Shown: positions 1 through 44,784, numbered from the stretch's first letter. The stretch is 64,000 nt of DNA from Phycisphaerae bacterium (GCA_046483505.1 JAWODB010000123.1:8371-72370), one strand, 5' to 3'. The notes: generated from the letters alone by a model not told the origin. Made by a program: numbers and translations.

Positions 1-539
1 ATCACGTGCTTGCGGGTGTTGTCCAGGGCGTGGAAGAACCGGTTGACGTCGATCCGATCCTTCTCCTCGATGTCGTTGGGGAAGACGTTGATCGTGAAGA
101 GGTGGACGTTCTCGAGCGTCTCGACGAGCCGCGCGTTCAGGATGACGTCCATGGTGCGCGAGGGCCGGCGCTCGCCCGTCTCGGGGTCGAGCACGTAGAT
201 GGCCGTGCCGCCCGTTCCGTAGTGGACGCGGCTGCCTTCGAGGTGACAGTCGAACTCGCCGTCGCGGGAGTGGAGCGTGACGGACGAGGGGTTGGAGTCG
301 ACGGCGTCCTCGACCATGCTGCGGGGCAGGCGGACGATGCGGGTCTCGTCGTCGCCCTCGCCGCCCGCCTCGGTCAGCGCGCGGTAGGCGGTATCGGAGT
401 AGGCGGCGACGCCGGCCTTCTCGAGGATCTCGAGGGCGGCGTCGGCCAGGCGCGCGGCGTCGGCCTCGCTCAGCGGACGGTAGAGCGTGGACGGCAGCCC
501 GGGCTGCTGGTGGATCGGTCGCTCGGATGGCTGGGCCAT
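1..539 (-). CDS. MttB-superfamily (trimethylamine/glycine-betaine-type) corrinoid-dependent methyltransferase, N-terminal 179 aa; gene continues past window start
   Basis: Hand translation from ATG (plus-strand 'cat' at 537-539) gives MAQPSERPIHQQPGLPSTLYRPLSEADAARLADAALEILEKAGV...GTGGTAIYVLDPETGERR..., with no stops to position 1 and high GC3. The N-terminal pattern resembles MttB/MtgB family proteins. Confidence 0.45.
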   Translation of the reverse strand, partial: MAQPSERPIHQQPGLPSTLYRPLSEADAARLADAALEILEKAGVAAYSDTAYRALTEAGGEGDDETRIVRLPRSMVEDAVDSNPSSVTLHSRDGEFDCHLEGSRVHYGTGGTAIYVLDPETGERRPSRTMDVILNARLVETLENVHLFTINVFPNDIEEKDRIDVNRFFHALDNTRKHV

Positions 540-558
540 GGTCGGTCCTCATGCGTGG

Positions 559-1149
559 TCACGGTGTCGTCTCGTCCGTCTCATTGCCCGCCGGCGCCGC
601 CCCGGCGGGGGGCTCCCCGAAAAACGAGCGGGTCTGTTCGGGCGTCCTGTCCATGGGGCCGGGCGTCAGCATCGGCGCCGCCTCGATCCCGTCGGCCTCC
701 ATCATGGCCACGATGCGCTGAAGCGACGACAGGATCTGCGTCTGCTGCCAGTCCGGCAGCCCTGCGAACGCCTCCAGAAAGTTCTCGTGCAGCAGCGGCG
801 GCGACTGGCCCAGCGCGTCCCGGCCGTCCTCGGTCAGCCAGACGTGGACCTTCCGCTTGTCGGCCTCGCCGCGGCGGCGTTCGATCAGACCCCGCCGCTG
901 AAGCCGGTCCAGGATGCCCGTCACGGTGGCCTGGCTCAGGTGGACGGCCCGGGTCAACTCGCCGATGCTGCGGCCGCCGTCGGCGCCCAGTTCCTTGAGG
1001 ACGGCCAGTTGCGGCACGGTCAGGCCGTAGCGGCTGGCGAGCGAGTGTGAATGCAGTTCAATCGCCCGGCTGATGCGGCGCAGGGCCTGCATCACCGCCT
1101 CGGCAACGGCGAAACCGGACGCTCTCTGCTCGGTGGCACCTGAGGTCAT
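559..1149 (-). CDS. MarR-family transcriptional regulator
   Basis: 196-aa ORF with a winged-helix region (LTVPQLAVLKELGADGGRSIGELTRAVHLSQATVTGILDRLQRRGLIERRR) typical of MarR. It ends 20 bp upstream of the MttB-like start. Confidence 0.8.
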   Translation of the reverse strand: MTSGATEQRASGFAVAEAVMQALRRISRAIELHSHSLASRYGLTVPQLAVLKELGADGGRSIGELTRAVHLSQATVTGILDRLQRRGLIERRRGEADKRKVHVWLTEDGRDALGQSPPLLHENFLEAFAGLPDWQQTQILSSLQRIVAMMEADGIEAAPMLTPGPMDRTPEQTRSFFGEPPAGAAPAGNETDETTP

Positions 1150-1324
1150 AGACCCGGATTATATCGGATGCGAAAGGAATTTCCACTGAAAAATCCTCCG
1201 CGCCGGCACGTCGGCGTGAGAAACCGCTCCCTGGGCGCGTCCAGGCCGGTTTCGGGCATAATGCGGGCTAAGACGGTGTTTCGGATGCGTTAAAACTTGG
1301 GCGGCCGAAGACGCCACCCCTGGG

Positions 1325-2797
1325 CTAGGCCGAGGCCGCAGACTGCTTCTCCCGGCGCGCGCGGGCCGCCTCGCGCTCCGCGGGCAGGGGCGGCAGGTGC
1401 GGCACGTGGTCCGCCCACGCCCGGGCCGTCGCGTCGATGTGGCGGGCAATCCGGCCGTCGAGGTAGCCGTCGGCCATGTTCTTGGCCGGCCGGCACTCCG
1501 GCTGCCGGGCCACGCGCCGGAACGCCTCGGGATGGTCCACGAGCAGGCACGGGCGGGCGCGGTCCGTAATCTTCTTCTGCTCCTCACGGAAGCCGACGAA
1601 CACCGGATGCCGCTGCACGAAATCGTTCAGGCTGGCGTAGTCGCTCCGCCCGTCGATGATGTCGAAGATGTTGCCGCAGGCCACCGGCGAGAAGACGCAC
1701 GGGCTGATGTCTCCGTTCGCGTAGATATGGAAATAATATTTCCCGCCGGCGATGCAGCCGCCGACCAGGGGTCCGTCGTTCCAGAAGTCGCCGAGGAAGA
1801 TGGGCCGGTCCTCCTCGCGCCAGCGGTAGATCGTCTCGCGCAGCAGGGCCCGCTGTTCGGGAGTGACCATGAGGTCGACGCGCGGCGAGCGGCCGATCGG
1901 CATCATCAGGAAGAACCAGCCGAACATGTCGCCCTCGTCGATGCGCATCTCGATGAAGCCGTCGGAGCAGATCGATTCGCAGTTCTCACGCGTGACCGTG
2001 GCGGAGAATCCACACATGACGCCGCGCTCGGCGAGCAGCCGGCGGGCCCGGCGATCCTTGTCGTAGATGCCGCGGCCGCGACGGGCGTCCGTCTCGTGCT
2101 CGAACCCTTCCACACTGATGGCCGGGAAGACGTTGCCGACCCGCGCCAGGCGGTCGGCGATGTCCTCGTCGATGAGCGTCCCGTTCGTGTAGACGAGAAA
2201 GCCGCGGTCGGGGAACCGCTCGGCCAGGCGCGTGAGGGTGCGGTCGGCCTTCTCGCGGAGGAACGGTTCGCCGCCCGAGATCGTCACGAGCGTCACGCCC
2301 ATGTCGATGACCTGCTCGACGATGCTCTCCATCTGCTCGTACGGGATGTCGCACCCGTCGCGCGTGCTCTTGGCGTAGCAGCCGGGGCAGTTGAGGTTGC
2401 AGCGGTCGGTGGGCTCGATGACGACGGTGCAGGGGGTGGCGGCGCCTTCGGTGTACGCCTCGGTCCGGCGATAGACGTCCAGGCTCCATGCGGCGATGAA
2501 CCGGAGGATGGCCCGCGCCGCCACCGGCCGCTCCCGGAGCAGGCGGTCGAGGAACGACTGCAGATGCCGGGCGAACCACCGGTCGTGCATCAGTTTCTCG
2601 TGGTCGTCCTCGCATTCGGTGTGCGACTCGTCCAGGCGTTCCAGGAGCCGGTTCAGGAAGAAGTCGCGGACGGGCGGCACCTGGAGCCCCAGGTCCGCGC
2701 CCTTGACGGCCGCACTCATCGCCAGGTACGCCAACCGTTCGCGGAAGTTTCGGGACGTGACATCCATCGCCATCTCCCCCTTGAAACTGGGCGTCAC
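1325..2797 (-). CDS. Radical SAM enzyme with HpnH-like core and a Cys-rich C-terminal auxiliary (SPASM-like) region
   Basis: CNLNCPGCY (CxxxCxxC) followed by the SAM-binding motif VTISGGEPFL; the core resembles the HpnH subfamily. The C-terminal cluster is GGCIAGG...SPCVFSPVACGN. Start is GTG at 2797 (in-frame ATG at 2773). It lies 3 nt downstream of the B12-rSAM stop. Confidence 0.75.
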   Translation of the reverse strand: MTPSFKGEMAMDVTSRNFRERLAYLAMSAAVKGADLGLQVPPVRDFFLNRLLERLDESHTECEDDHEKLMHDRWFARHLQSFLDRLLRERPVAARAILRFIAAWSLDVYRRTEAYTEGAATPCTVVIEPTDRCNLNCPGCYAKSTRDGCDIPYEQMESIVEQVIDMGVTLVTISGGEPFLREKADRTLTRLAERFPDRGFLVYTNGTLIDEDIADRLARVGNVFPAISVEGFEHETDARRGRGIYDKDRRARRLLAERGVMCGFSATVTRENCESICSDGFIEMRIDEGDMFGWFFLMMPIGRSPRVDLMVTPEQRALLRETIYRWREEDRPIFLGDFWNDGPLVGGCIAGGKYYFHIYANGDISPCVFSPVACGNIFDIIDGRSDYASLNDFVQRHPVFVGFREEQKKITDRARPCLLVDHPEAFRRVARQPECRPAKNMADGYLDGRIARHIDATARAWADHVPHLPPLPAEREAARARREKQSAASA

Positions 2798-2800
2798 GGA

Positions 2801-4267
2801 TCAGGATTCAGCGGGCTGGAGCGTCCTCTCGCGGAAGGTCTCCAGGTACGCCGCCGTCTCCTCCTTCCATGCCTTGATGGTGTTGCGGGCGATTCGGGCG
2901 TTCTTCCAGAGCAGGGCGAGTTTGTCGCCCATGCCGATCCTCTGCTCAAAGTACTTGCGCAGCCGATGCACGCTCACCCCGCTCCAGCGGTAGAACTGCC
3001 GGTGCGCATCGAGCAGCACCTGCTGGAGCCGCTCGATGCCCAGCCGCCCGTGATTGTACACGCAGTGCGTCCCGTCGTAGTAGTCCCAGTCGGCGGGGAA
3101 CTGCGTGAAGGTCAGGTGCGGCCGGAACTGTTCCATCAGCGGCGTGCCGGGAAACGGCGTCAGCACGCTGATCTGGAGCGTCTCGAGGCGGCTCCGATGG
3201 GCGAAGCGGACGATCTGGTCGGCCGTCCGCTCCGTGTGCTGCGGCCCCAGGACAAACATCCCGTGAATCCAGAACCCGTTGTTGTGGAGGATGTGCGTGT
3301 CTTCCATCAGGCGCGTCGTCAGCGCCCCCTCGCCCTGGTACCCCTTGTGCCACTGCTTGGCCGTCTCGTCGTCGATGGTCTCGTAGCCGATGTAGAAGAC
3401 GTCGCCGCCCGCGCGGCGCATGGCGCGGAGGAGTTCGTCGTCGCGGCGGCGGCGATGGCGGTCCTTCCAGTGGAAATCGACCCGCACCTGGGCGTTGAAC
3501 CGCAGGTCCATCGGCCGGAGCCGCTCGAGCAGGTCGCGGCTCCAGGCCCGGTCCGTCGTGAAGTTGTCGTCGTAGAAGAACATCCGCTGGAAGCCGCGGG
3601 CGGCGTACTGCTGAATGTCGGCGTGGACCTTGTCCACCGACTGCCGCCGCACCCGCCGGCCGAACATCCGCGTCACGGTGCAGTACTCGCACCCGAACGG
3701 GCACCCGCGGGAGGTCATGACGGGCAGTTCGTAGTACTCGCGTCGGCGGCACTCGGCCAGCAGCGACTCGAACCCGTGCATGAGCCCGTGGTTGAGCGTC
3801 GGCAGCGTATCCAGATCTTCCACCGGGTCGCCGCGAACCACGCCCCGCCGGATGCGGCCGGCGGCGATGTCCTCGATGACCGACTCCGCCTCGCCCTGGA
3901 CGACCACGTCGCCGTGCTGCCGGGCCTCCTCCGGGCGGAAGGTCGCGTGGACCCCGCCGAACGCCAGCGTCACGGCCGGGCACCGCTCACGGATGGCGTC
4001 GGCGATCTGGTACCCCCGGTTGGCCGTCGGCGTCATGATGCTGATGCCCACGACGTCGGCCTCGCAGAGGTCCTCCATGATCTCCGGGTCCTCCAGAACC
4101 GGCCCGGAGAGGTTCTCGTTGTAGACCGCCACGTCGTAGCCGCGCTGCTCCAGCAGCGAGGCCAGCGTGATGGGGCCGAGCAGCGGCCACTTGCGAATCC
4201 AGGCATTGAACGGCCGTCCCGGCCGCCCGCTCGGCTCGATGAACCGGATCGTTCGCGTCTTCGACAT
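2801..4267 (-). CDS. Cobalamin(B12)-binding radical SAM protein (class B rSAM)
   Basis: N-terminal B12-binding fold (DVVGISIMTPTANRGYQIADAIRER...VTLAFGGVHATF) followed by a radical SAM core (MTSRGCPFGCEYCTV). ATG at 4267; 488 aa. Confidence 0.8.
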   Translation of the reverse strand: MSKTRTIRFIEPSGRPGRPFNAWIRKWPLLGPITLASLLEQRGYDVAVYNENLSGPVLEDPEIMEDLCEADVVGISIMTPTANRGYQIADAIRERCPAVTLAFGGVHATFRPEEARQHGDVVVQGEAESVIEDIAAGRIRRGVVRGDPVEDLDTLPTLNHGLMHGFESLLAECRRREYYELPVMTSRGCPFGCEYCTVTRMFGRRVRRQSVDKVHADIQQYAARGFQRMFFYDDNFTTDRAWSRDLLERLRPMDLRFNAQVRVDFHWKDRHRRRRDDELLRAMRRAGGDVFYIGYETIDDETAKQWHKGYQGEGALTTRLMEDTHILHNNGFWIHGMFVLGPQHTERTADQIVRFAHRSRLETLQISVLTPFPGTPLMEQFRPHLTFTQFPADWDYYDGTHCVYNHGRLGIERLQQVLLDAHRQFYRWSGVSVHRLRKYFEQRIGMGDKLALLWKNARIARNTIKAWKEETAAYLETFRERTLQPAES

Positions 4268-4581
4268 AGGCCTTTTCTTCCCTTCTCACAGACCCTGGAC
4301 AGTGGAGGACCTGGCCATCCGCAGCGACCACCGGCGCAACGTACCCTCCGGGCGCGCGCTGCCCGCTGCGTCCGATACGACGCACCCGCTACGCACGTAC
4401 CATACCGCGCAGGCACAGGCCGATTCCACCCGAAACCAAGTTTCGCCCCCACACGCCGGGATACACGACGTGACGAGGGCAACCGTTGCAATGCGCGCGG
4501 GCCTGTGTTTCAATGGAGTCGGGCGGCCGGCTGCGCATGCGGTCCGGCCGGGAACGTGCGAACCCGAAAGGAGACACCCCG

Positions 4582-5703
4582 ATGGCCTCGCCTGCCCCGC
4601 GTACCCGCCGTCCGGCCGGCTTCGCCGGCCCGATCCTCCTGGCGCTCGGCGTCCTGCTGGCCGGCTGCGGCGAAGGGCCGGCCCCCGAACCGCCCGAAGG
4701 CGCGGAGCCGGCCGACGCCGAGACCGACCTCCTCCAGCCCACCATCGCCGTCAAACTCCCGGAGAAATACAACACGCCGGACGGCATGGCCCTGGCGCCG
4801 GACGGCACCATCGTCCTCTCGTGCCCGAACTTCAACGACCCCTCCCATCCCGCGGTGATGCTGCGGATCGACGAGAACGACCTGGTGAGCGAGATCATCG
4901 CCCTGCCCGTCCACCCCGAGACGAAACGCGTCGGGCCGCTCGGCGTGGCCATCGGGCCGGAAGGGCACCTGTACGTCGCCGACACCCAGGCCGACTGGGC
5001 CGAGACGCCGTCCTCCCGCCTCCTGCGCGTCGTCATGGAGAACGGCCAGGCCGTCCGCTGCGAGACGCTCGTCGAGGGGTTCGTCCAGTCCAACGCCGTC
5101 TCCATCCACGGCGGCCAGGTGTACGTGACGGAGACGAAACTGAAACCCGACGCCACGCCCCTCGTCAGCGGGGTGTACCGCTTCAAACTGGCGGACCTCG
5201 ATCCGGCCAATCCCGTCCAACTGAAGCCCGCCGGCGCCGACCCGCACCTCGTGACGACCTGCGAGACGCAGAATCCCGACCGGCGCATCGGCGCCAACGG
5301 CATGGGCTTCGACGCCGACGGCAACCTCTACTACTGCAACTTCGGCGACGCCGAGATCCTCAAAGTAACGTTTAACGCGAACGGCGAGGTCGCCTCGCAG
5401 ACCGTCTTCGCGAAGGGCGGCGGCATGACGTCGACCGACGGCATCAAGGTCGACCCCGACACCGGCGACATCTACGTGGCCGACTTCGACGGCAACGCCG
5501 TCCACCGCGTCGACGGTGAGACCGGCGAGGTCACGACGCTGGCCAGGAACGGCAACACGACCGGCGCCGGTGGCGAACTCGATACGCCCAGCGAGGTGTG
5601 CCTCCGCGGTCGGCGGCTGTACGTCTCGAACATCGATTTGCCGTTCCGCGATAACGAATACGACGCGCCTCACACGATCTCGGTCATCGAACTGCCGGAG
5701 TGA
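4582..5703 (+). CDS. SMP-30/gluconolactonase/LRE-like beta-propeller lipoprotein
   Basis: Start MASPAPRTRRPAGFAGPILLALGVLLAGCGEG has a lipobox LLAGC, with SD AAAGGAG 9 nt upstream. Repeated motifs of the type 'GPLGVAIGPEGHLYVAD', 'DADGNLYYCNF' and 'GDIYVADF' match the SGL/NHL-like propeller. Confidence 0.7.
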   Translation: MASPAPRTRRPAGFAGPILLALGVLLAGCGEGPAPEPPEGAEPADAETDLLQPTIAVKLPEKYNTPDGMALAPDGTIVLSCPNFNDPSHPAVMLRIDENDLVSEIIALPVHPETKRVGPLGVAIGPEGHLYVADTQADWAETPSSRLLRVVMENGQAVRCETLVEGFVQSNAVSIHGGQVYVTETKLKPDATPLVSGVYRFKLADLDPANPVQLKPAGADPHLVTTCETQNPDRRIGANGMGFDADGNLYYCNFGDAEILKVTFNANGEVASQTVFAKGGGMTSTDGIKVDPDTGDIYVADFDGNAVHRVDGETGEVTTLARNGNTTGAGGELDTPSEVCLRGRRLYVSNIDLPFRDNEYDAPHTISVIELPE

Positions 5704-5870
5704 ACTGACAACGAAATGGGCGCGGTGGGTCTCCGTACCCACCGCGCCGAACGAGAAAGCGAGTGCAGAAGCGAGAATCGCGCGGCGGGTGCGGAGACCC
5801 GCCGCGCCCGAGAGAAAATTCCCGCGCGGTGGGTCGCCCGACCCGCCGCGCCCAACGCCTGGATCAGTCC

Positions 5871-8783
5871 ATGAAACGCGCCGAACAAGCCGCGTTGGCA
5901 TGCGCCGTCCTGCTGCCCCTCCTCCTCCTGACGGCGGCGGGCGCCGGGCACACGGCGCATGACGACGCCGCCGTCATCACGGTCAAGGGCGACAAGCCGC
6001 TCCATGCCTCGACGCTGCGCGAGGGCGGCCGCATCAGCACCAACCGCGCGTACACCTTCACCCGCGTTCCGGAGGCGCTGCGCGGCCTCGCCTCGACGGT
6101 CAACCAGCACAAGAACCCCGCCACCCTGACGGTAACGGCCGAGACCGACGGGGCTGTGTACACCTGCTTCGGCGAGGGGGACGCCGGCGATGCGTCGTCT
6201 CAGCCCACGCCCGCCTCGCTGAACCTGGACGGCGCGTGGGCCGAGGCCGGTCGTATGGTCGCCGTCGTGGGCGGCCGGGCGTACGGCTGGACCATCTATC
6301 GCACGCGGATGAAGGCCGGCCAGGTGCTCACCGTCCCGCCGGGCAACCGGTGGGGGGCGGCCGTCCTGGCCCGCGAGATCCGCGGGCTGGACACGGTGGC
6401 GGCCCGTCCCGGCGAGGGGCCTCCCCTGCCGGCCGACCTGTCCGACGCCCACGCCGCCGAGCGGGAAGCGTGGGCGCGGCCGGACCTCGCCGACGAGGCC
6501 CGCCGTCGCTGGCACGAACTGGCGCGGCAACTCGGCGACCGCACGTGGTTCAAGCGGATTGCGGGCCAGGCGTACCATCCGGCGGCGCTCGTTCGCGACG
6601 GCGACCGCGACCCCGTGGACGTCCTGCTCCGCCGCACGACCGCCCTGCTCCGCCGCCTGCGCGAGATGCCGGAGGCGCCGGACCTTTCGGAAGCCGCGGA
6701 CGAACTCGCCGGCCTTCGACGGCGCGCCGCCAAGGTCGACCCGGCCAGGACCGCGGAACGCTACCGCCTGTTCCACGAGGCGATGCGCCTGAGGCGGCGC
6801 GTCGCCCTCGCCAATCCGCTGCTCGACGTCGACCGCATCCTGTTCGTCCAGCGGCACGACGCCGGCGGGCCGTTCCACATGTGCGACCAGTACTACGGGT
6901 GCAACGCCCGGCCGGGCGGCGGCCTGTTCGTCCTGGAGGACGCCTTCGGCGCCGAGCCGCACCTGCGCAACCTCCTGGCCGACGCCGCCGTCGAAAACGG
7001 CCGCCTGGAGGGCCGGCGGCTGGAGGGCGGCTCGTTCCTTTCCCCCGAACTCTCGTTCGACGGCCGGACCGTCTATTTCGCCTGGACCCAGGCCCAGGCC
7101 AAAAAGACCTATACGTGGACACCCGAGTGCTGCTACCACGTCTTCAAGGTGAACGCAGACGGGACCGGCCTGCGGCAACTCACCGACGGGCCGTGGGACG
7201 ACTTCGACCCGTGCGTCCTGCCGTCCGGGCGCGTCGCCTTCATCAGCCTCCGCCGCGGCGGGTATCTGCGGTGCGGCCGGCACTGCCCCACCTACACCCT
7301 GCACTCGATGGAGCCGGACGGCTCGGACATCGTCCCGCTCTCCTACCACGAGACGCACGAGTGGCACCCCAGCGTCGATCGCTTCGGCCGCATCGTCTAC
7401 ACGCGGTGGGACTACGTGGACCGCGACACGAACGTGGCCCATCATATCTGGACGTGTTATCCCGACGGCCGCGACCCCAGGTCGATGCACGGCAACTACC
7501 CGCTGGAGCGCGGCAGCCGGCCGTGGATGGAGATGACCATCCGGGCCGTGCCCGGCTCGCTCCGGTACATCGCCACGACGGGGGCCCACCACGGGCACGC
7601 GTTCGGGTCGCTCGTGCTGATCGACCAGTCGTACGAGGACGACCGCGCGATGTCGCAACTCTCGCGGCTGACGCCGGAGGTCCGTTTCCCGGAGGCCGAG
7701 GGCGACATCCGCCGGCACATGATCTTCGCCACCCCGTGGCCCCTCGCCGAGGACTTCTGGCTCTCGGCCTACGACCCGGCGGCGAAGCGGCACGGCCTTT
7801 ACCTGGCCGATGCGTTCGGCAACCGGACGCTTCTGTACCGCGATGCGTCGATTCCTTCCCTGAGCCCGATCCCGCTGGGCGCGCGGCCCCGGCCGCCCGT
7901 CATCCCGACCGAGACGACGCAGACGGTGCGGGGCCGGCGGAAGTTCGGCGAGCGCCGCGCCACCGTCGCCGTCATGGACATGTACGACAGCGATTTCCAG
8001 TGGCCGGAAGGTGCCAAGGTCGACCGCCTCCGCATCGTCCAACTGCTCCCCAAGAGCACGCCCCCGCCGGACAAGCCGCGCATCGGCGTCGCCCGCCAGT
8101 CCAGCGCCCGGGCGTCGCTCGGCACCGTGCCGGTCGAGGCGGACGGCAGCGTCCACTTCGAGGCCCCCGTGGGCGTGCCCATCTACTTCCAGGCGCTGGA
8201 CGAGCGGGGCATGGCCATCCAGTCGATGCGGTCCGTCACGTACGTGCACCCCGGCGAGCGACTCGTCTGCCAGGGCTGCCACGAGCCGAAACGGCGGCAG
8301 CGTCGGCCCGGCGGCCGCCTGCCCGTCGCGCTCAGGCGGGCGCCCTCCCCCATCCGGCCCGACCCGGACGGCGCCGACCCGTTCAACTACGTCCGCCTCG
8401 TCCAGCCCGTCCTCGATACGCACTGCGTGGCGTGCCACAAGGAGAAGAAGGCGGTGGACCTCACGGGCGAGCCCGGCGGCAAGTACGGGTGGACCCGTTC
8501 CTACGCCAACCTCGCGGAGGCGTTCGGGTTCTACTTCCACGTCTACAACGGCTCGATCAAGGCGGGCGTGCACGGCGGGAGCCGGACCGTGCCCGGCAAG
8601 TTCGGGGCGCGGGCGTCGCGGCTGCTCGAGTACCTCGGTCCGGCCCATTACGGCGTGGACCTGCCGCCGGAGGCCTTCCGGCGCGTCGCCCTGTGGCTGG
8701 ACCTGAACAGCGAGTTCTACGGCGCGTACGAGCAAACGGACGAGCAGGCGCGGGGCCAGGTGGTCGAGCCGAGCCTGGAGTGA
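5871..8783 (+). CDS. Large secreted protein with a TolB-like PD40 beta-propeller and C-terminal CxxCH haem-binding-like motifs (paralog of 35597-38419)
   Basis: Signal peptide MKRAEQAALACAVLLPLLLLTAAGAG. PD40-like repeats (GRTVYFAW..., DGTGLRQLTDGPWDDFDPCVLPSGRVAF, MEPDGSDIVPLSY). C-terminal CQGCHE and CVACHK. Collinear similarity to the protein encoded at 35597-38419. Confidence 0.65.
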   Translation: MKRAEQAALACAVLLPLLLLTAAGAGHTAHDDAAVITVKGDKPLHASTLREGGRISTNRAYTFTRVPEALRGLASTVNQHKNPATLTVTAETDGAVYTCFGEGDAGDASSQPTPASLNLDGAWAEAGRMVAVVGGRAYGWTIYRTRMKAGQVLTVPPGNRWGAAVLAREIRGLDTVAARPGEGPPLPADLSDAHAAEREAWARPDLADEARRRWHELARQLGDRTWFKRIAGQAYHPAALVRDGDRDPVDVLLRRTTALLRRLREMPEAPDLSEAADELAGLRRRAAKVDPARTAERYRLFHEAMRLRRRVALANPLLDVDRILFVQRHDAGGPFHMCDQYYGCNARPGGGLFVLEDAFGAEPHLRNLLADAAVENGRLEGRRLEGGSFLSPELSFDGRTVYFAWTQAQAKKTYTWTPECCYHVFKVNADGTGLRQLTDGPWDDFDPCVLPSGRVAFISLRRGGYLRCGRHCPTYTLHSMEPDGSDIVPLSYHETHEWHPSVDRFGRIVYTRWDYVDRDTNVAHHIWTCYPDGRDPRSMHGNYPLERGSRPWMEMTIRAVPGSLRYIATTGAHHGHAFGSLVLIDQSYEDDRAMSQLSRLTPEVRFPEAEGDIRRHMIFATPWPLAEDFWLSAYDPAAKRHGLYLADAFGNRTLLYRDASIPSLSPIPLGARPRPPVIPTETTQTVRGRRKFGERRATVAVMDMYDSDFQWPEGAKVDRLRIVQLLPKSTPPPDKPRIGVARQSSARASLGTVPVEADGSVHFEAPVGVPIYFQALDERGMAIQSMRSVTYVHPGERLVCQGCHEPKRRQRRPGGRLPVALRRAPSPIRPDPDGADPFNYVRLVQPVLDTHCVACHKEKKAVDLTGEPGGKYGWTRSYANLAEAFGFYFHVYNGSIKAGVHGGSRTVPGKFGARASRLLEYLGPAHYGVDLPPEAFRRVALWLDLNSEFYGAYEQTDEQARGQVVEPSLE

Positions 8784-15486: not shown

Positions 15487-16788
15487 ATGGACCGCCACAG
15501 CCGGCGTCAGTTCCTGAAGCGTCTCGGCCTGGCCGCCGGTGCCGCCGCCGCGGCGCCGTACGTCGTGCCGGACACGGCGACCGGCGCCGCCGCGGACGTC
15601 GTCTCGCCCAGCGAGCGCGTCACGATGAGCATCATGGGCTGCGGCAACCGCGGGCCGCGGGTCATGGGGCATTTCCTCCAGCAGCCGGACGTCCAGTGGC
15701 TGGCCTGCTGCGACTGCCGCATGGACCGCCTCATGGCCGCCAAGAAGAAGGTCGACGCCGCCACCGGCAACAGCGACTGCGCCACGTACCGCGACTTCCG
15801 CGAGTTGTTCGACCGCCCGGACCTGGACGGCGTCCTCATCGCGACGGGCAACCGGTGGCACGCGCTCGGGTCCATCTACGCCGCCCGCGCCGGCAAAGAC
15901 GTCTACAGCGAGAAGCCGATCAGCCTGACCCTGGCCGAGGGCCGGGCCCTCGTCGAGACCTGCGACCGCCTCGGCACCATCTACCAGGCGGGGTACCAGC
16001 GGCACTCGGTGGACTCGTGCCGCTTCGCCGTCGAGTGCGCCCACCAGAAACGCATCGGCGACCTCAAGGAAGTCATCTGCAACAGTTGGACGAACAACGT
16101 CGTCAAGCCGAGCCCGGTCGTCCCCGTGCCGCAGAACTTCTGGTACGACATGTGGCTTGGCGCGACGCCGTGGCACCCGTTCTCCTGGGCCCGCGTCAAC
16201 GGCTGGCGGGTCGTCTGGGACACCGGCGCCGGCATCCTGGCCGACATGGGCTGCCACTGGACCGACCTGGCCCAGTGGGCGAACCACGCCGAGGAGACCG
16301 GTCCCGTCCACATCGAGACCGAGCACGTCGAGTGGGCCCCGGCGGACGCGCTGACCGAGGTGCCCGTCTCGGCCCGGGCCGTCACCACGTACGCCAGCGG
16401 CGTCCGCGTGGTCCACGACGCCACGGGGACGTTCAACGAGCGGTACATCCGCTTCGTGGGCACCGAAGGATGGGTCCAGGTGCACGACGCCACGAACACC
16501 GTGACGGCCGAGCCGGCGTCGCTGTTGCGGCTGCGGGACATCTCGGCCAAGGGCTGGGGCGACCCGGGCGACCACATCCGGAACTTCCTGGAGGGCATCA
16601 AGACCCGCCGGCGGACGGTCTGCTATCCGGAGGCCGCCCACCGCGCCATGAGCCTGTGCCAACTGGCGAACATCAGCATCCGCCTCGGCCGGCCGCTGCG
16701 GTGGGATCCCGTGAAGGAGGAGTTCCCCGACGACCCGGAGGCGAACACGCTTCGCGGCCGGGCCATGCGGTCGCCGTGGCGGATCTGA
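15487..16788 (+). CDS. Gfo/Idh/MocA-family oxidoreductase, TAT-exported
   Basis: MDRHSRRQFLKRLGLAAGAAAAAPYVV is a twin-arginine signal. Rossmann-like N-terminus (MSIMGCGNRGPRV) and motifs DVYSEKP, WHPFSW and CHWTD. 433 aa. Confidence 0.8.
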   Translation: MDRHSRRQFLKRLGLAAGAAAAAPYVVPDTATGAAADVVSPSERVTMSIMGCGNRGPRVMGHFLQQPDVQWLACCDCRMDRLMAAKKKVDAATGNSDCATYRDFRELFDRPDLDGVLIATGNRWHALGSIYAARAGKDVYSEKPISLTLAEGRALVETCDRLGTIYQAGYQRHSVDSCRFAVECAHQKRIGDLKEVICNSWTNNVVKPSPVVPVPQNFWYDMWLGATPWHPFSWARVNGWRVVWDTGAGILADMGCHWTDLAQWANHAEETGPVHIETEHVEWAPADALTEVPVSARAVTTYASGVRVVHDATGTFNERYIRFVGTEGWVQVHDATNTVTAEPASLLRLRDISAKGWGDPGDHIRNFLEGIKTRRRTVCYPEAAHRAMSLCQLANISIRLGRPLRWDPVKEEFPDDPEANTLRGRAMRSPWRI

Positions 16789-16847
16789 AGCCCGATGCAT
16801 CGCCACATGCACATGCGTTCCACACGACACTGCTGAAGGGAGAAACC

Positions 16848-19409
16848 ATGACACGCTCGTTCGTTCGATTGGCCGCCGTCGCCGCCGTCCTGGCCCTGCT
16901 CGCCGGCGCCGCCGGCGCCGCCGAGGCCCCCAGCAAGGCCGACATCGACCAGGCCGTCGGCGCCCTCGCCGCCTACAAGGCCGGCCAGGAGCACACGCCG
17001 GTCACCCGCATCGGCGAGTTGCTCCAGGCGATGCACGGTAAGGCGGACCTCCAGAAGCACATGGAGCAGAAACTCATCGGCCTCCTCGAAAGCGATGCCG
17101 ACTACGAGGCCAAACTCCAGGCCTGCCAGGTGCTGGCGCGTATCGGCACGGAGGCATGCATCCCCGCACTGGAGAAGATGCTGGACGACCCGAAGACGAC
17201 GCACATCGCGTGCTGGGCGCTCGAGCCGAATCCGAGCGCCGAGGCCCTGGCGGCCCTTCGCCGCGGCCTCCAGGATGCGAAGGGCGAGGCCGCCGTCACC
17301 ATCATGGGCGTCCTCGGGCAGCGGCGCGACGAGATGGCCGTCCCCATCCTCGAGAAGCACATCGGCGCCCACAGCGAGATGGTGGCCGAGGCCGCCCTGG
17401 CCGCCGTCGGCAAGATCGCCACGCCCAAGGCGGCCGACATCCTGGCCACGGCCCGCAAGAGCGTGGGCAAGGCCCTCCGCGGAGCCGCCAACGACGCCTA
17501 CCTCCAGTGCGCGAACCGCCTGGCCGACGCCGGCCGGACCGACCGGGCCGTCACGATGTTCGAAGACGTCCTCGAGGACGACGTCGCCATCCGTTACCAC
17601 CGCGGGGCGCTCATTGCGCTGATGCGGCACGCGGGCGGCAAGGCCGTGCCGCACGTGCTGGCGGCCATCCGCAGCAACGACCAGATGATGCAGGGTACCG
17701 CCATCGCCAACGTGCCCCTGCTCGAGGGCAAAGACGTGGTGAAACGGTTGTCGGCCGAACTGCCCAAGCAGTCGGCCCGCATCCAGGCCCTGCTCGTCAG
17801 CGCCCTGGCCGACCGCGGCGGCGACGACGCCCGCAAGGTCGTCACCGACGTCGTCGACGCCGACGAACCCGAGGCCCGCGTGGCGGCCGTCAAGGCCCTC
17901 GCACGGATCGGCGACGCCTCGTCCGTGCCGCTGCTCGTCAAGGCCGCCGGCCAGGGCAAGACGAAGGCGGAGCGTGAGGCGGCCCTGATTTCCCTCCGCC
18001 GCCTTTCGGGCGAGGGCGCCGACGCCGCCATCCTCAAGGCCATGAAGACCGCCAAGCCGCCCGTGCGAGCCGAACTCATCAGCGTCATCCACGGCCGGGG
18101 CACGAAGTCGGCGGTCCCCGCCCTGCTTGAACAAGCAGCGGCCGATGACGAAGCCGTCCAGGCGGCGGCGCTGAAGGCGCTGGCCCACCTCGCCGAACCG
18201 GATCACCTGGCGGACCTCGTGGAGCGCCTGGTGAACCTGAAGGCCGCCAAGGCCCGTCCCGCCGCGGAGCGGGCGGTCGTCCAGGTCGCGCAGAAGACCG
18301 AGACCCCGGCCGCCGGCAGCCGGCCCGTCCTGGCAGCCTTGAAGAAGACCGACGACGTCCTGACCCGGACGTCGCTGCTGCGCGTGCTGGGCGGCATCGG
18401 CGGGGAGGCGGCCCTGGCCGCCGTCACCGACGCCCTCGACGCCAGGCAGGAGGGCGTTCGCGACGCCGCGGTGCGGGCCCTCGGCTCCTGGCCGGACGCC
18501 TCGGCCGTGCCGGCCCTGCTGGGCCTCGTCAAGAAGACGGACGACCGCACGTACCGCGTGGTGGCGCTCCGCGGTGCCGCCCGGCTGCTGGCGAAGGGCG
18601 CGGGCGTACCGTCGGACGACGTCCTCCAGCCGTACAAGGACCTGATGGCCCTGAGCGAACGACCGGAAGACAAGAAACTCGTCCTGGCCGGCCTGGCCGA
18701 CGTGCCCCATCCGGAGGCCCTCCGGATGGCCGTCGATTCCCTCGACAACAAGGCCGTGCAGGGCGAGGCGGCCATGGCGGCCGTCAAGATCGGCGAGGCC
18801 GTCATGGGCAGCGCCCCCAAGGCCGTCGCAGCCGCCATGGAGCAGGTCGTCAAGGCCGCGCCCAATGACGCAACGAAGAAGCAGGCCCGGCAGGTGCTCG
18901 GCCGCGCCAGGCAACTGGGCAGCGGCATCCTCGGGTGGCAGATCGCCGGTCCGTACACGAAGCAGAACGTGCGGTTCTGGCAGTTGTGCAACCTGGCGTT
19001 CGCGCCCGAGAAGGAAGGCGAGCCGGCCGAGTGGCGCATCTGCCCCGTCAAGACGAAGGGTAAGACACACATCCTGATGGTGCACGAGATCCTCGGTCAG
19101 GGCGACAACCGCACCGCGTACGTCCGGACGTGGCTGGTGGCCGACAAGGCCGCGGACGCCCGCCTCGAAGCCGGCTCCGACGACGCCATCAAGATCTGGC
19201 TCAACGGCAAGGCCATCCACGAAAACCGCCAGGGCGGCGCGTGCGAGCCGGGCGAGCACAAGAAGAACGTCCGGCTCAAGCAAGGCGCCAACGCGCTGAT
19301 GCTCAAGATCACCAATGACAGCGGACCGTGGGAGTTCTCCGCCCGCATCGTCGGCCGCGACGGCAAGCCCCTGGACGGCGTGACCGTCGACCCGTATCAC
19401 GCGAAGTAG
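16848..19409 (+). CDS. Secreted HEAT-repeat (PBS-lyase-like) protein with a C-terminal ~170-aa beta-rich domain
   Basis: ATG 16848 with SD GAAGGGAG. Signal peptide MTRSFVRLAAVAAVLALLAGAAGAAEA. More than 12 HEAT-like repeats of the form (A/V)RxxAxxALGxxGDxxAVPxL. C-terminal region GWQIAGPYTKQNVRFWQL... Confidence 0.65.
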   Translation: MTRSFVRLAAVAAVLALLAGAAGAAEAPSKADIDQAVGALAAYKAGQEHTPVTRIGELLQAMHGKADLQKHMEQKLIGLLESDADYEAKLQACQVLARIGTEACIPALEKMLDDPKTTHIACWALEPNPSAEALAALRRGLQDAKGEAAVTIMGVLGQRRDEMAVPILEKHIGAHSEMVAEAALAAVGKIATPKAADILATARKSVGKALRGAANDAYLQCANRLADAGRTDRAVTMFEDVLEDDVAIRYHRGALIALMRHAGGKAVPHVLAAIRSNDQMMQGTAIANVPLLEGKDVVKRLSAELPKQSARIQALLVSALADRGGDDARKVVTDVVDADEPEARVAAVKALARIGDASSVPLLVKAAGQGKTKAEREAALISLRRLSGEGADAAILKAMKTAKPPVRAELISVIHGRGTKSAVPALLEQAAADDEAVQAAALKALAHLAEPDHLADLVERLVNLKAAKARPAAERAVVQVAQKTETPAAGSRPVLAALKKTDDVLTRTSLLRVLGGIGGEAALAAVTDALDARQEGVRDAAVRALGSWPDASAVPALLGLVKKTDDRTYRVVALRGAARLLAKGAGVPSDDVLQPYKDLMALSERPEDKKLVLAGLADVPHPEALRMAVDSLDNKAVQGEAAMAAVKIGEAVMGSAPKAVAAAMEQVVKAAPNDATKKQARQVLGRARQLGSGILGWQIAGPYTKQNVRFWQLCNLAFAPEKEGEPAEWRICPVKTKGKTHILMVHEILGQGDNRTAYVRTWLVADKAADARLEAGSDDAIKIWLNGKAIHENRQGGACEPGEHKKNVRLKQGANALMLKITNDSGPWEFSARIVGRDGKPLDGVTVDPYHAK

Positions 19410-19695
19410 CCGCGAGCCGCCGGCCACGCGCCACGAGCAATAGACCAAGGCAAAGCGCGGCGGGTCGGAGCCTGTCCCGAGCGAAGCCGAGGGGTACCCG
19501 CCGCGCTGGCCGAGCGCCGGCCCGCTTTCGGGCCGAACGCCCTGCGCAGGCCCGTTGAGCGGTCGACCGAAGGTCGACGCGGGTTTCTCGAGCGAACGGG
19601 CGCCGACGTGCCGTCGGCGGCTCAACGAAGACCAAGGCCGTCCAGCGCGGTGGTTCGGGAGGGCCACCGCGCGGAGAGCCAGGAAGGAACCACCC

Positions 19696-21087
19696 ATGAA
19701 CCGCCGCTCGTTTCTGAAGGGCCTGGGCGCAGCCGCCCTCGCCCTGCCCGCCCGGGCACGCGCCGCCGAGGCCGACCGCAAGCCCAACATCGTCTACATC
19801 ATCGCCGACGACCTCGGCTACGGCGACCTGAGTTGCTACGGCCAGGAGCATTTCAAGACACCCCACATCGACCGCCTGGCAGCCGAGGGCCTGAAGTTCA
19901 CCCAGCACTACGCCGGCTCGACCGTCTGCGCGCCGTCGCGGTGCGTCCTGATGACCGGCCTGCACACCGGCCACGCCTATGTCCGGGGCAACAAGGAGCA
20001 CAAGCCCGTCGGGCAGGAGCCCATCCCCGCCGATACCGTGACCGTGGCCGAACGCCTGAAGGCGGCCGGCTACACCACCGGCGGATTCGGCAAATGGGGA
20101 CTCGGCTACCCCGGCTCCGAGGGTGACCCCGTCCGCCAGGGCTTCGACGAGTTCTTCGGCTACAACTGCCAGCGCAACGCTCACCGCTACTACCCGAACT
20201 TCCTCTGGCACAACGAGAAGCGCGTGGACCTGGACGGCAAGACGTATTCGCACGCCCTCATCATGGAACGGGCCCTGGACTTCATCCGCCGGCACAAGGA
20301 CGGGCCGTTCTTCTGCTTCATGCCGGTCACGATTCCGCACGCGGCGATGCAGGCGCCGGAGAAGTACGTGGCGCCGTTCCGCGACACGTTCTCCCAGTTC
20401 GCCGACGCCGTCGGCCGGTACGCCGGCACGCAGACGAAGAACCCCGTGGCGGCCTTCGCCGGCATGATGACGGTCCTCGACGAGAGCGTGGGGCAGGTGC
20501 TCGCGCTCCTGGAGGACCTCGGCCTCGATGAGAACACGGTCGTGATGTTCACGAGCGACAACGGGCCGCACCACGAGGGCGGGCACAAACCGCAGTTCTT
20601 CGATTCCAACGGGCCCTTGAAAGGGCACAAGCGCGACCTGACGGAGGGCGGCATCCGCGTGCCGATGCTCGCCCGCTGGCCCGGCCGCATCCGCCCCGGC
20701 ACCACCACGGAGCACATCTCCGGGTTCCAGGACGTGATGCCGACGCTGTGCGACCTCGCCGGCACGGCCGCCCCGGGCGGCATCGACGGCCTCTCGTTCC
20801 TCCCGACGCTCATCGGCCGGGCCGACCGCCAGAAGGCGCACCCGTACCTGTACTGGGAGTTCTACGAGCGGGGCGGCAAACGGGCCGCCCGCAAGGGCCG
20901 ATGGAAGGCCGTCCAGACCGGGCTCCAGAAGAAGTCGCCCGGCCCCGTCCGCCTGTACGACCTGGAGAAGGACCTCGGCGAGACGACGGACGTGGCCGAC
21001 GCCCATCCGGAAATCGTGGCGGAGATGAAACGAATCTTCGCCGAGGCCCACACGCCGTCGGAGATCTGGACGTTCCGCGGGCTGTGA
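19696..21087 (+). CDS. Sulfatase (arylsulfatase family), TAT-exported
   Basis: MNRRSFLKGLGAAALALPARARA signal. NIVYIIADDLGYGDLSCYG, followed by the formylglycine motif CAPSRCVLMTG. Confidence 0.85.
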   Translation: MNRRSFLKGLGAAALALPARARAAEADRKPNIVYIIADDLGYGDLSCYGQEHFKTPHIDRLAAEGLKFTQHYAGSTVCAPSRCVLMTGLHTGHAYVRGNKEHKPVGQEPIPADTVTVAERLKAAGYTTGGFGKWGLGYPGSEGDPVRQGFDEFFGYNCQRNAHRYYPNFLWHNEKRVDLDGKTYSHALIMERALDFIRRHKDGPFFCFMPVTIPHAAMQAPEKYVAPFRDTFSQFADAVGRYAGTQTKNPVAAFAGMMTVLDESVGQVLALLEDLGLDENTVVMFTSDNGPHHEGGHKPQFFDSNGPLKGHKRDLTEGGIRVPMLARWPGRIRPGTTTEHISGFQDVMPTLCDLAGTAAPGGIDGLSFLPTLIGRADRQKAHPYLYWEFYERGGKRAARKGRWKAVQTGLQKKSPGPVRLYDLEKDLGETTDVADAHPEIVAEMKRIFAEAHTPSEIWTFRGL

Positions 21088-38419: not shown

Positions 38420-38609
38420 GCAGCCTCGCTTTCGGACGGGAAAACGGTCCTCCCGCCGGCATTCTACACGGGAATCGGGCGGATGCAACCGCGTGGGCCG
38501 CGGCGGCAAGACTGCCCGCCGCGCACGAAGTGCGCGTGGTGGTGCCAGCGCGCTGACTACCAGTTCTCACACGGGGCGGTATGGGCATACCGGGACGCGT
38601 GGCAGGTCG

Positions 38610-40866: not shown

Positions 40867-41247
40867 CAAGCCTTTGCAAGGGGCCAAGTTAGAACCGGGC
40901 CCGGAATCCCGCCGATCCCCCGGTGCAACGCCGTGCGACCCAATGCGACCGTACGCTGCACCGCATTCTGCACCACTTCTTGACGGTCGGCACCCTGGGC
41001 CCGCACCTACGCCAACCGGAGACGCGCTCCGCGGTGCACGGCCGTCCGCGTTGCACCGCCCTGCACCCCTCACCGCATCGTCTGTCACAGCCGCCCGTTG
41101 CGTATTGTCCCATGATGCATCGCTCCCCGTTGATAGAACGCTATTGCACGTACGAGTCAACGTGGTAGCATGGGCTGGGTTGAGGATAGGCCGCGGGCCT
41201 CGTACAAGTTAGTGGAGGTCACTGGCCCGCACAGAAAGGGGTGCAGG

Positions 41248-44200: not shown

Positions 44201-44784
44201 GGGTCGCGGCCGAGCACGGCCTTGCCGACCTGTTGCCCGAGGGCCTACGGGCCCGGACGGGCCGATTCGTCGCAGCAAGCGGCGGCCGCGTGTACTTCTA
44301 CCTCGAGGACGTGACCCGCGTTAGGCCCCTCGAGAAACGCGAGGGCGCCGCGATGGTCCTCCACCCCGACGGCACCGTCGAGACTCTCGGCGAGACGGCC
44401 GCTGCGTTCCTCCGTACCTATGCCCTCAGCCGCACCGTCGGCCCGGACGGATGGATCTGGCAGAGCGGCGACGGGTTCCTCCAAGGGATGTCGCCGGACG
44501 GGCGCCAGGTCCTTACTCGGCCGACGGTCCGGCACCTGACGCATATTCGCGTTCGGGCCGTCGACGAGGAGGGCACGCTCTACCTCCATGCCAGCCGGCA
44601 CTGGTGGCGGCTGCGACCGCCGGGAGAGGCCGAGCCCGCGGCCGCCCAGCTGCCGCGCCTGCCCGCCGTCCGCACCGGCATCCACGGCCTGGCCTGGCCG
44701 GACGACCGCGGCCGCATGTGGTGCACGTGGGATCGGCCGGACCACCGGGTGTCACATCGTTCTGGATCCCTTTGCCGCCAATGA
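41248..44784 (+). CDS. Large secreted hypothetical protein (HEAT/ARM-like helical repeats plus beta-propeller-like C-terminal half)
   Basis: ATG 41248 with AAAGGGG upstream. Signal peptide MRCAATILFLVAALAGPVRPA. 1178 aa, high GC3. Its TGA stop overlaps the next ATG (ATGA) at 44781-44784. Confidence 0.6.
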   Translation: MRCAATILFLVAALAGPVRPADRPAVPRTSMPERVQKIFRRAIETYPYDGRRKAEERARNLEALDQIREGPWPDLGRLKRVRLHFHSDLYERDFTATAWRVHAAEGAETDGLLLVAPDLTARPFPAGAFTRVEPVDYAEELATLVRVLEKPESERPDEWDLVLLPGGGGHAMRFHSTILLLHHAYAAAWLGREDEAGRLLRELLGGGEAAFAYACTRLGDRWFLWGTRMLSEDRPWAGVLDQWRETLRYFPNWRYPDQLREVVSRLEEQVPEMARLAETDVADPAALPPQERIACYAARLPEVRGAQTRIPGSARALRMGQRTRVSDALVAIGRPAVPALLDRLDDRRITRSVADSLAPKLAILRVQDVAIQCIEAIVDLQFYRPSTTSSSMSSEAPQIRETVIEDIRTWWQEHGQKSALAGFLGRLNQTENLRRRIATLGKIEATDADAVDSVARLKEWAVEANRSGLRDIIEALLERGDTSLLPAAMEAARRALRDGRLDCVRTLLDHGGPDDFRVLREAVERERARVAAPESSALLKFLRYHLPRVDRPVAVPLLVDCLGDRRLTKSRQVLGRKERLRFSAADDCMQALIDLTGHDAGYRKNADAEARLAAIDRWLAWWKREGREAFLAAHPAVRKVAEGGGRRIARLDPADLPPSIWVQWADADTPIACRVPRESLVRLFTRGDVQARAFTDGSDAPPAPGARHVDHHGRPVTQAHQTFRFTSRDAAWRWFEQAHPLPAETEPDRQPLACLGASGNIESLTLAPGGRAWLWDAYPKQEPDIVRRRVEEGAASDRPAVTVGGAQILLIDPRDRVWLTRTGDAHRLLACDPAARRWLHREAGDRDAPVPTTDAKGRRLDPLFTGSAYASRAGRLFFADRFGLHVLHDDTWSYHPLVRAGEGRNRPERTAPEGLRNLEFREDEAGTLYVWATEGRDVGGLTVFDGQRWHDLPVPGIPKDVVPVGPGRAWVIGEGPLVYRVENGRVAAEHGLADLLPEGLRARTGRFVAASGGRVYFYLEDVTRVRPLEKREGAAMVLHPDGTVETLGETAAAFLRTYALSRTVGPDGWIWQSGDGFLQGMSPDGRQVLTRPTVRHLTHIRVRAVDEEGTLYLHASRHWWRLRPPGEAEPAAAQLPRLPAVRTGIHGLAWPDDRGRMWCTWDRPDHRVSHRSGSLCRQ

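Follow-up and report, generated by a model that had tools for sequence, protein, structure and literature searches.

A B12-binding radical SAM gene and an Mss-family radical SAM gene form a conserved pair in Phycisphaerae that may modify the alkyl tails of membrane lipids

In this study, we analysed a 64,000-nucleotide stretch of DNA from a Phycisphaerae bacterium (GCA_046483505.1, JAWODB010000123.1:8371-72370), hereafter named the window, which has a G+C content of about 70%. The map of open reading frames (ORFs) places four ORFs on the minus strand of its first 4.3 kb. In order of transcription, they code for a B12-binding radical S-adenosylmethionine (SAM) enzyme (hereafter B12-rSAM), a second radical SAM enzyme, a MarR-family regulator and the N-terminal part of an MttB-superfamily methyltransferase. 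All four are supported as real genes by the G+C content at the codon positions (GC3 0.89-0.96, GC2 0.44-0.51). The gene order and domain calls of the earlier note on this DNA were confirmed, both by the ORFs and by their Pfam domains. We show here that the second radical SAM protein is related to Mss, an enzyme that couples lipid tails, and that its gene is conserved together with that of B12-rSAM. We propose that the pair modifies alkyl tails of membrane lipids. Coordinates are given in Table 1.

The longest ORF of the second radical SAM gene (490 aa) gave a Pfam Radical_SAM match of 76.6 bits and a sub-threshold SPASM match, its CNLNCPGC motif corresponding to C133, C137 and C140. A BLASTP comparison with Mss of Thermotoga maritima showed 35% identity over 361 aa, i.e. 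74% of the protein, with an E value of 7e-73. The published definition of Mss homologs asks for E<=1e-50 and an identity >=30% (PMC13159169), and the values obtained against AGL49750.1 lie within both limits. The reference protein, a member of the Thermotoga cluster (P0548) that was reached via a Thermosipho member of the family, is AGL49750.1, whose older name is ‘AstB/chuR-related protein’ and which has been used as the T. maritima Mss query (bioRxiv 10.64898/2026.06.23.733905). Its activity was verified by the C32 and C33 diabolic acids it yields in anaerobic E. coli; more generally, Mss couples two fatty-acid tails, giving diabolic or iso-diabolic acids (PMC13159169). All six conserved cysteines, those of CX3CX2C as well as C348, C367 and C417, are in register with T. 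maritima Mss, and many core motifs are shared with the verified enzyme. None of the NCBIfam cut-offs was reached by the 490-aa ORF (top matches StsB, mycofactocin maturase, AhbD and NirJ, around 70 bits versus 265-625). The verified Mss also falls under every NCBIfam cut-off, with similar weak matches of the NirJ, AhbD and StsB type, so that no curated assignment was to be expected for the window protein. Searches of PDB by sequence and by fold returned generic SPASM/twitch enzymes (SkfB, SuiB, anSME) and, weakly, Tes (7TOL/7TOM). By homology, the 490-aa ORF is thus assigned to the Mss family.

The partner, B12-rSAM, carries a B12-binding domain (PF02310, residues 33-134, 59 bits) followed by a Radical_SAM domain (PF04055, residues 185-356, 55.9 bits), and its cysteines C189, C193 and C196 are invariant in 17 orthologs. 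As read from these domains, this is the architecture of class-B enzymes, a B12-binding domain then a radical SAM core with CX3CX2C. The same architecture is found in the class-B enzymes acting on lipids (HpnJ, HpnR/HpnP, Grs, Gmm/Cgm/Pgm, Ted, TIGR04072). Two further likenesses link the partner to them: HpnJ is its best curated match, and its gene is coupled to that of a lipid enzyme. It differs in that it stays far under every curated NCBIfam cut-off (HpnJ 109.6 bits for a cut-off of 577.6, BchE 83.5/481, HpnR 52.2/650, TIGR04072 53.3/360). The best sequence matches in PDB were 9ccb, AprD4 and TokK. A homology to Tes was also considered for this protein and rejected, as the profile does not match 7TOL even at E<=1. 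Methylation is the commonest outcome for class-B radical SAM enzymes. Known B12-dependent radical SAM enzymes of lipids methylate (Gmm, Cgm, Pgm, HpnP/R), form rings (Grs) or desaturate (Ted). The partner would likewise methylate, cyclise or desaturate lipid tails, and sequence alone does not choose between the three.

The earlier note had described the Mss-family protein as HpnH-like, while doubting that it is a true HpnH and noting that hopanoid genes are absent nearby. The doubt was justified and the likeness was not: the protein scores 41.6 bits on the HpnH model TIGR03470 (cut-off 225), some 20 other radical SAM families score higher, and its real relative is Mss (E 7e-73). Given that the verified Mss is equally weak on this model (53 bits), the HpnH match reflects a generic radical SAM similarity. 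A hopanoid side-chain pathway, in which an HpnH-like adenosyl-hopene transferase would act with an HpnJ-like B12 enzyme, might still be put forward on the grounds that HpnJ is the top NCBIfam match of B12-rSAM, that HpnH is among the weak matches of its neighbour, and that hopanoids are generally reported from some Planctomycetes. However, both proteins are far under the respective cut-offs, a verified lipid-coupling enzyme is just as weak on the HpnH model, and the window ORFs scanned include neither a squalene-hopene cyclase nor hpn domains. Among the 38 related loci described below, no hopanoid gene was a conserved neighbour and no hpnH-hpnG-shc cluster was seen. We consider this pathway extremely improbable.

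We compared 38 distinct loci of the Phycisphaerae/Planctomycetota clade, of which about 33 could be tested for the upstream gene. In 26 of the 38, the gene immediately upstream of the Mss-family gene is B12-rSAM, the rest being partnerless or at contig ends. The B12-rSAM orthologs of these 26 loci are at 47-90% identity. The estimated gap between the two genes has a median of 37 nt (25 loci measured) and does not exceed 120 nt in 21 of the 25. Upon all-against-all clustering of the neighbouring ORFs of the 38 loci, B12-rSAM proved to be the sole conserved neighbour. In a distance tree, the Phycisphaerae clade forms a separate deep branch, over the whole of which the paired loci are scattered; the pairing therefore looks ancestral, with occasional loss. 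The proposal of the earlier note that the two radical SAM genes form a unit is supported by this conserved pairing and by the short gaps. We infer that they make up a conserved two-gene operon of anaerobic Phycisphaerae, probably transcribed as a single unit. One metagenome-assembled genome (MAG) of Phycisphaerae, GSL_GB14_14, contains two Mss-family paralogs (L012 and L029). One of them, 73% identical to the window protein, is paired with B12-rSAM; the second, at 65%, has no such partner and adjoins a PurE-like AIRC gene on the opposite strand.

Within the window, the gap between the two genes depends on the start codon retained. The 3 nt given previously are correct for the longest ORF, which begins with GTG. 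A strong Shine-Dalgarno sequence, AAGGGGGAG, precedes an ATG-GCG-ATG in the mss gene, and homologs are about 480 aa long, so that M11 (position 2767) is the likely start. The product would then have 480 aa, and the real gap to the B12-rSAM stop would be 33 nt. The promoter of the pair is presumably located in the intergenic region 4268..4485. A scan for the sigma-70 consensus found no site in this region, and an Rfam search (E<=1) over positions 1-6000 gave no cobalamin riboswitch, with two weak chance-level matches only.

Table 1. Features of the four-gene region at the beginning of the window
Positions	Strand	Feature	Basis
1..539	-	MttB-superfamily methyltransferase, N-terminus, 179 aa, cut by the window edge, judged outside the module	Pfam MTTB 73 bits
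559..1149	-	MarR-family regulator, 196 aa, judged outside the module	Pfam MarR 57 bits
1158..1185	-	Sigma-70-like promoter TGGAAA-16-TATAAT just upstream of marR	Consensus scan
1325..2767	-	Mss-family radical SAM enzyme, ~480 aa when counted from M11, the likely start	BLASTP vs T. maritima Mss
1325..2797	-	Longest ORF of the Mss-family gene, 490 aa, GTG start	ORF map
2768..2800	-	Spacer between B12-rSAM and mss with Shine-Dalgarno AAGGGGGAG before the mss start	Read from the sequence
2801..4267	-	Radical SAM enzyme of class-B type (B12-binding), 488 aa, leading gene of the pair	Pfam B12-binding and Radical_SAM
4268..4485	.	Intergenic region between the pair and a divergent NHL/SGL-repeat gene on the plus strand, upstream of the pair	ORF map

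The earlier note had joined the MarR and MttB genes to the pair in a single operon or pathway, with methyl groups supplied through MttB. Expressed in full, this means that an MttB-family enzyme and a corrinoid carrier feed methyl groups to B12-rSAM, the four genes being one MarR-regulated operon. The arguments are that the four genes lie on the same strand with only 19 nt between marR and the MttB gene (the 20 bp reported before was one too many), that MttB and B12-rSAM are both corrinoid users, and that the same four-gene order is present in L005 and L006. But these two closest relatives are the only loci, out of 38, with MarR and MttB downstream of the pair: both genes are missing from the other 36, while the radical SAM pair persists. 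Even in L005 and L006, the MarR-MttB spacing differs from that of the window (about 740 nt and 275 nt). In addition, the 175-nt gap before marR includes a promoter-like site that matches the sigma-70 consensus at 10 of 12 positions. It is the only such site in 400-4700, for 0.1 expected by chance, and is judged to mark a separate transcription unit; it is also an AT-rich stretch in DNA of 70% G+C. As for the carrier, L005 (13174-16319) has two MttB-family genes in a row downstream of marR, of 493 and 504 aa and both of the non-pyrrolysine kind, and no corrinoid-protein domain was present in the seven ORFs scanned around and downstream of them. Finally, class-B radical SAM methylases methylate their own cobalamin from SAM, so that an MttB-type methyl donor would not be needed. 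Overall, the comparative data bring the feeding of B12-rSAM by MttB close to refutation, and we hold it for very improbable. MarR and MttB are judged to be a separate, lineage-specific unit, whose members would be chance neighbours of the pair. As far as can be read from the DNA, the MttB gene is transcribed separately, an arrangement that the earlier note had itself named as speaking against its operon.

On the 179-aa MttB fragment, the MTTB domain scores 73 bits for a cut-off of 25, and TIGR02369 scores 114 bits for a cut-off of 525, a value to be read as that of a fragment whose pyrrolysine site lies outside the window. The earlier note had recommended checking this site: the ortholog in L005 is an uninterrupted ORF of 493 aa, which makes this ortholog, and probably the window gene, a non-pyrrolysine member. 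A ‘radical SAM mobile pair’ system was also considered and rejected, the MarR protein scoring 34.3 bits on TIGR04472 (cut-off 240).

We then come back to the Mss-family protein and its cysteines. In an alignment of 79 family sequences, C133, C137, C140, C348, C367 and C417 are invariant, and the last three are the only conserved cysteines besides the radical SAM triad. The C-terminal region is thus not the Cys-rich auxiliary region that had been described before, and with three extra conserved cysteines, at most one auxiliary cluster would be ligated. An AlphaFold2 model built on the same alignment (predicted local distance difference test, pLDDT, of 94.5) begins with an N-terminal domain of five helices (residues 10-116), which is followed by the radical SAM barrel and by a C-terminal domain that is twitch-like.

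These features bear on another explanation, in which the pair matures a peptide made on the ribosome and modified after translation (RiPP), or modifies a protein, by a SPASM/twitch-type cross-link and a C-methylation by B12-rSAM, on a target encoded elsewhere. The best relatives of solved structure are indeed RiPP maturases (SkfB, SuiB, CteB-type), StsB, mycofactocin and WgkB are among the top weak NCBIfam matches, and ApyD and other models of RiPP B12-dependent radical SAM enzymes match the partner weakly. Moreover, the N-terminal extension of ~110 aa sits at the usual place of RiPP recognition elements. These elements, however, are usually described as a winged helix with strands, and the N-terminal domain is all-helical in the confident AlphaFold2 model. 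Of the small ORFs (15-120 aa) that flank the pair in the 26 paired loci, up to ~700 nt away in each direction, none is conserved, and no candidate precursor was seen there. The conservation of the Mss-family protein across Phycisphaerae MAGs (54-92%) is high for a RiPP maturase by general experience. Its match to Mss (E 7e-73) also contrasts with those to peptide maturases (~1e-14 to 1e-21), and family members are found in lipid gene clusters, as detailed below. A peptide or protein target is in our view improbable. The earlier note had hesitated between a lipid and a peptide as substrate, and the lipid is the better of the two guesses.

To place the window protein among its relatives, a representative library was used, in which 444 clusters were found at E<=1e-30, with members mostly of 450-500 aa. 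Close relatives (54-92% identity) all come from MAGs of the Phycisphaerae/Planctomycetota type. Distant ones (36-46%) come from Synergistota, Spirochaetes, Deltaproteobacteria, Bacteroidales, Dehalococcoidia (Chloroflexi), candidate phyla and DPANN archaea. Further members were found in Clostridium (Clostridia) and in every Thermotogales genus sampled. This distribution agrees with the one published for Mss (PMC13159169). Two MAGs of DPANN archaea (a Pacearchaeota MAG and an unclassified archaeon; L061:8279-11077 and L050:1905-8374) have two Mss-family copies each, in tandem in L061. Plasmid copies were seen in Escherichia albertii (pEA5_1, L087:2254-3633), with uninformative surroundings, and in Klebsiella pneumoniae (NZ_CP077819.1). 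The enterobacterial copies are listed as 46-49% identical to the Thermosipho Mss, which was unexpected for hosts not known for membrane-spanning lipids.

Two genomic contexts in other phyla are informative. In a Geobacteraceae MAG (L076, 8440-19169), the Mss-family gene is surrounded by lipid genes on the same strand. The order is a polysaccharide deacetylase, a GT2 glycosyltransferase, the Mss homolog, a lipid A-type acyltransferase and an HpnR/HpnJ-like B12-dependent radical SAM gene, followed by a FabD-like gene, a TIGR04072 B12/radical SAM gene, a FabG-like gene and a ketoacyl synthase. The TIGR04072 member, a ‘lipid biosynthesis B12/rSAM’ protein, passes the cut-off of its model (384 bits versus 360). 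Through this cluster, Mss-type genes are linked with lipid radical SAM genes of the ‘ladderane-type’. The second context is that of a Dehalococcoidia MAG (L056, 5752-9138), where the Mss homolog overlaps a gene for a BadF/BadG/BcrA-type ATPase, which is followed by plsX, an arrangement that looks like an operon tied to phospholipid synthesis. Both contexts support a lipid role of the Mss family. Clustering of the neighbouring ORFs revealed no conserved neighbour among the other distant family members. The synteny observed in Synergistota (secDF, yajC, recJ, relA) was rejected as a functional link, as it reflects relatedness only.

The closest known system is Mss itself (Tmari_0825/AGL49750 of T. 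maritima and its counterpart in Thermoanaerobacter ethanolicus; Sahonero-Canavesi et al. 2022, PMC13159169). The proteins have similar lengths (482 aa versus 480 here) and the same layout, in which an N-terminal extension of ~100 aa precedes the radical SAM core and three cysteines are conserved in the C-terminal domain, and both the verified enzymes and that of the window are from anaerobes. The window protein differs by belonging to a separate clade, specific to Phycisphaerae, and by an N-terminal domain that BLAST does not align. A third difference is the B12-rSAM partner beside the Phycisphaerae gene: among 42 distant relatives fetched from other phyla, one was seen only in L076. In archaea, gms, which codes for the GMGT synthase, a SPASM-type radical SAM enzyme with an N-terminal helical cap, clusters with gmm, coding for a B12-dependent radical SAM GMGT methylase (PMC11214058). 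The logic is that proposed here for the pair, namely a radical SAM enzyme of SPASM/twitch type joining lipid tails by a C-C bond and clustered with a B12-dependent one that then modifies these tails (PMC11214058, PMC11186832). Yet Gms, compared here by its published description only, resembles AhbD (E 7e-79 as reported) and has a complete SPASM domain and two fully Cys-ligated auxiliary [4Fe-4S] clusters (PMC11186832, PMC11214058), whereas the window protein scores 69.7 bits on the AhbD model (cut-off 500) and has three extra cysteines. The substrates of Gms are, in addition, isoprenoid glycerol dialkyl glycerol tetraethers (GDGTs). With three C-terminal cysteines, a Pfam SPASM match under the threshold and 69.7 bits out of 500 on AhbD, membership in Gms was rejected, Gms being judged by description. 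Tes, or GDGT-MAS (7TOL/7TOM), the four-domain tetraether synthase of archaea, also couples the ends of lipid tails, and its catalytic auxiliary cluster is held by three cysteines and one weak ligand, to be compared with three cysteines here. Its similarity to the window protein is weak and limited to the core (phmmer E 3e-4, Foldseek rank 35-36, TM ~0.37), and according to the inventory of conserved cysteines, its rubredoxin-like domain and N-terminal Fe-S cluster have no equivalent. In the absence of conserved N-terminal cysteines, and with the phmmer match restricted to the core, membership in Tes was likewise rejected. Earlier surveys list ‘hits’ to Mss, Ger, Tes, GrsA and Gms for MAGs of Phycisphaerae/Planctomycetota from euxinic water (PMC11868695), and Garcia et al. 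noted that lipid radical SAM enzymes have homologs in bacteria of the Planctomycetes. The hit counts so published may include the genes described here. In the literature searched, we found no description of a conserved operon of Mss and B12-rSAM.

Our preferred explanation, held with moderate confidence, is that the pair is a two-gene operon of an anaerobic Phycisphaerae-type planctomycete whose products act on membrane lipids and modify their alkyl tails. Direct observations are the homology to verified Mss, the conserved set of cysteines, the conserved pairing of the two genes and the lack of conservation of MarR and MttB; the catalytic activities of both enzymes and the nature of the lipid are inferred. 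Several points weigh against this explanation. The identity to verified Mss is only 35%, and by BLAST the N-terminal domain has no detectable sequence similarity to that of T. maritima Mss. At least 7 loci of the clade have enough upstream DNA and no B12-rSAM partner. The closest curated families of the partner, HpnJ and BchE, are not methylases, and its AlphaFold2 model, made from a single sequence, was unusable (pLDDT 39). No hopanoid or other lipid gene (ger/plsA and tes included) was present among the ~30 window ORFs scanned. Membrane-spanning lipids are not always present where an Mss homolog is (PMC13159169). Lastly, in Clostridium carboxidivorans and C. tyrobutyricum (L085:6114-8383 and L086:4589-8392), the Mss-family gene is just downstream of an AIRC/LarB-like gene, with a LarC-like Ni-insertion gene also present at the C. 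tyrobutyricum locus, which may be a functional link or shared synteny only, and solo Mss-family genes are carried by plasmids of Escherichia and Klebsiella; such mixed contexts indicate that the family may not be functionally uniform.

Several of these points would fit a different explanation, namely that the pair, while a member of the Mss superfamily by ancestry, has diverged to act on some other hydrophobic or cofactor-type molecule (quinone, tetrapyrrole or nucleotide cofactor), so that the Mss similarity does not predict the substrate. The low identity and the separate deep branch formed by the Phycisphaerae clade would be expected in that case, as would the unrelated contexts of the enterobacterial plasmids and the LarB/LarC neighbours of Clostridium. 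The shared weak similarity to the heme enzymes NirJ and AhbD goes in the same direction, and so does the fact that the partner is closest to BchE and HpnJ, which do not act on lipid tails. Against such a divergence, no cofactor-pathway gene is conserved beside the pair, both informative contexts in other phyla (L076 and L056) concern lipid synthesis, and all catalytic cysteines and many core motifs are common to the verified Mss. A diverged substrate appears to us unlikely, while deserving serious consideration.

If the pair does modify lipid tails, its action can be pictured as follows. The two genes would be transcribed as one unit. If it works like the enzymes of T. maritima and Thermoanaerobacter, the Mss-family protein would cleave SAM reductively, and the resulting 5'-deoxyadenosyl radical would abstract a hydrogen at or near the end of a tail. 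The single three-Cys auxiliary Fe-S cluster would probably hold this first radical, as proposed for Tes, Gms and Mss, before two acyl or alkyl chains are joined by a C-C bond. The five-helix N-terminal domain may serve as a lipid-binding cap, as proposed for Gms. The expected products would be membrane-spanning lipids of the diabolic- or iso-diabolic-acid type. B12-rSAM would modify the same chains afterwards, or prepare them beforehand, most likely by adding methyl branches; alternatively, it could close a ring, like the archaeal Grs, or introduce a double bond, like the archaeal Ted.

The remainder of the window contains genes for a sulfatase, a GH28 protein, GFO/IDH/MocA oxidoreductases, a sodium:solute symporter, two-component regulators, DAHP synthase and Rho. 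It also contains two proteins of ~1000 aa, encoded at 5763-8783 (+) and 35597-38509 (-), each with a hydrazine-synthase-alpha middle domain (HZS_alpha), one of which has a DUF7402 as well. Four very long ORFs (946-1479 aa; 41170-44784, 49672-54111, 60429-63269 and 16623-19790) have no Pfam match at E<=1e-5. Three of these four fail a codon-bias gene filter, and some may be spurious in DNA of such high G+C content.

Temperature and pH are widely reconstructed with branched tetraether lipids as proxies, and it is still debated which organisms produce these lipids in anoxic settings. No description of enzymes that methylate or cyclise the chains of branched tetraethers was found in the literature searched. 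The conserved and tightly linked operon of Mss and B12-rSAM, from uncultured anaerobic Phycisphaerae, provides a concrete two-gene candidate for the chain-modifying step of bacterial membrane-spanning lipids. A more specific possibility, which we raise as a speculation and consider rather unlikely, is that B12-rSAM is the enzyme adding methyl branches to such lipids, or forming rings in them. If this were true, these planctomycetes would be a source of branched or ‘overly branched’ GDGT-type lipids in anoxic waters and sediments, and the gene would be the first marker for the methylation step behind the palaeothermometers based on branched GDGTs. Even if the partner acts on another substrate, the analysis corrects a tempting mis-annotation, that of an HpnH/hopanoid function or of an MttB-fed methylation. 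It also shows that Mss, for want of a curated model, is hidden behind generic ‘radical SAM/SPASM’ annotations in many genomes.

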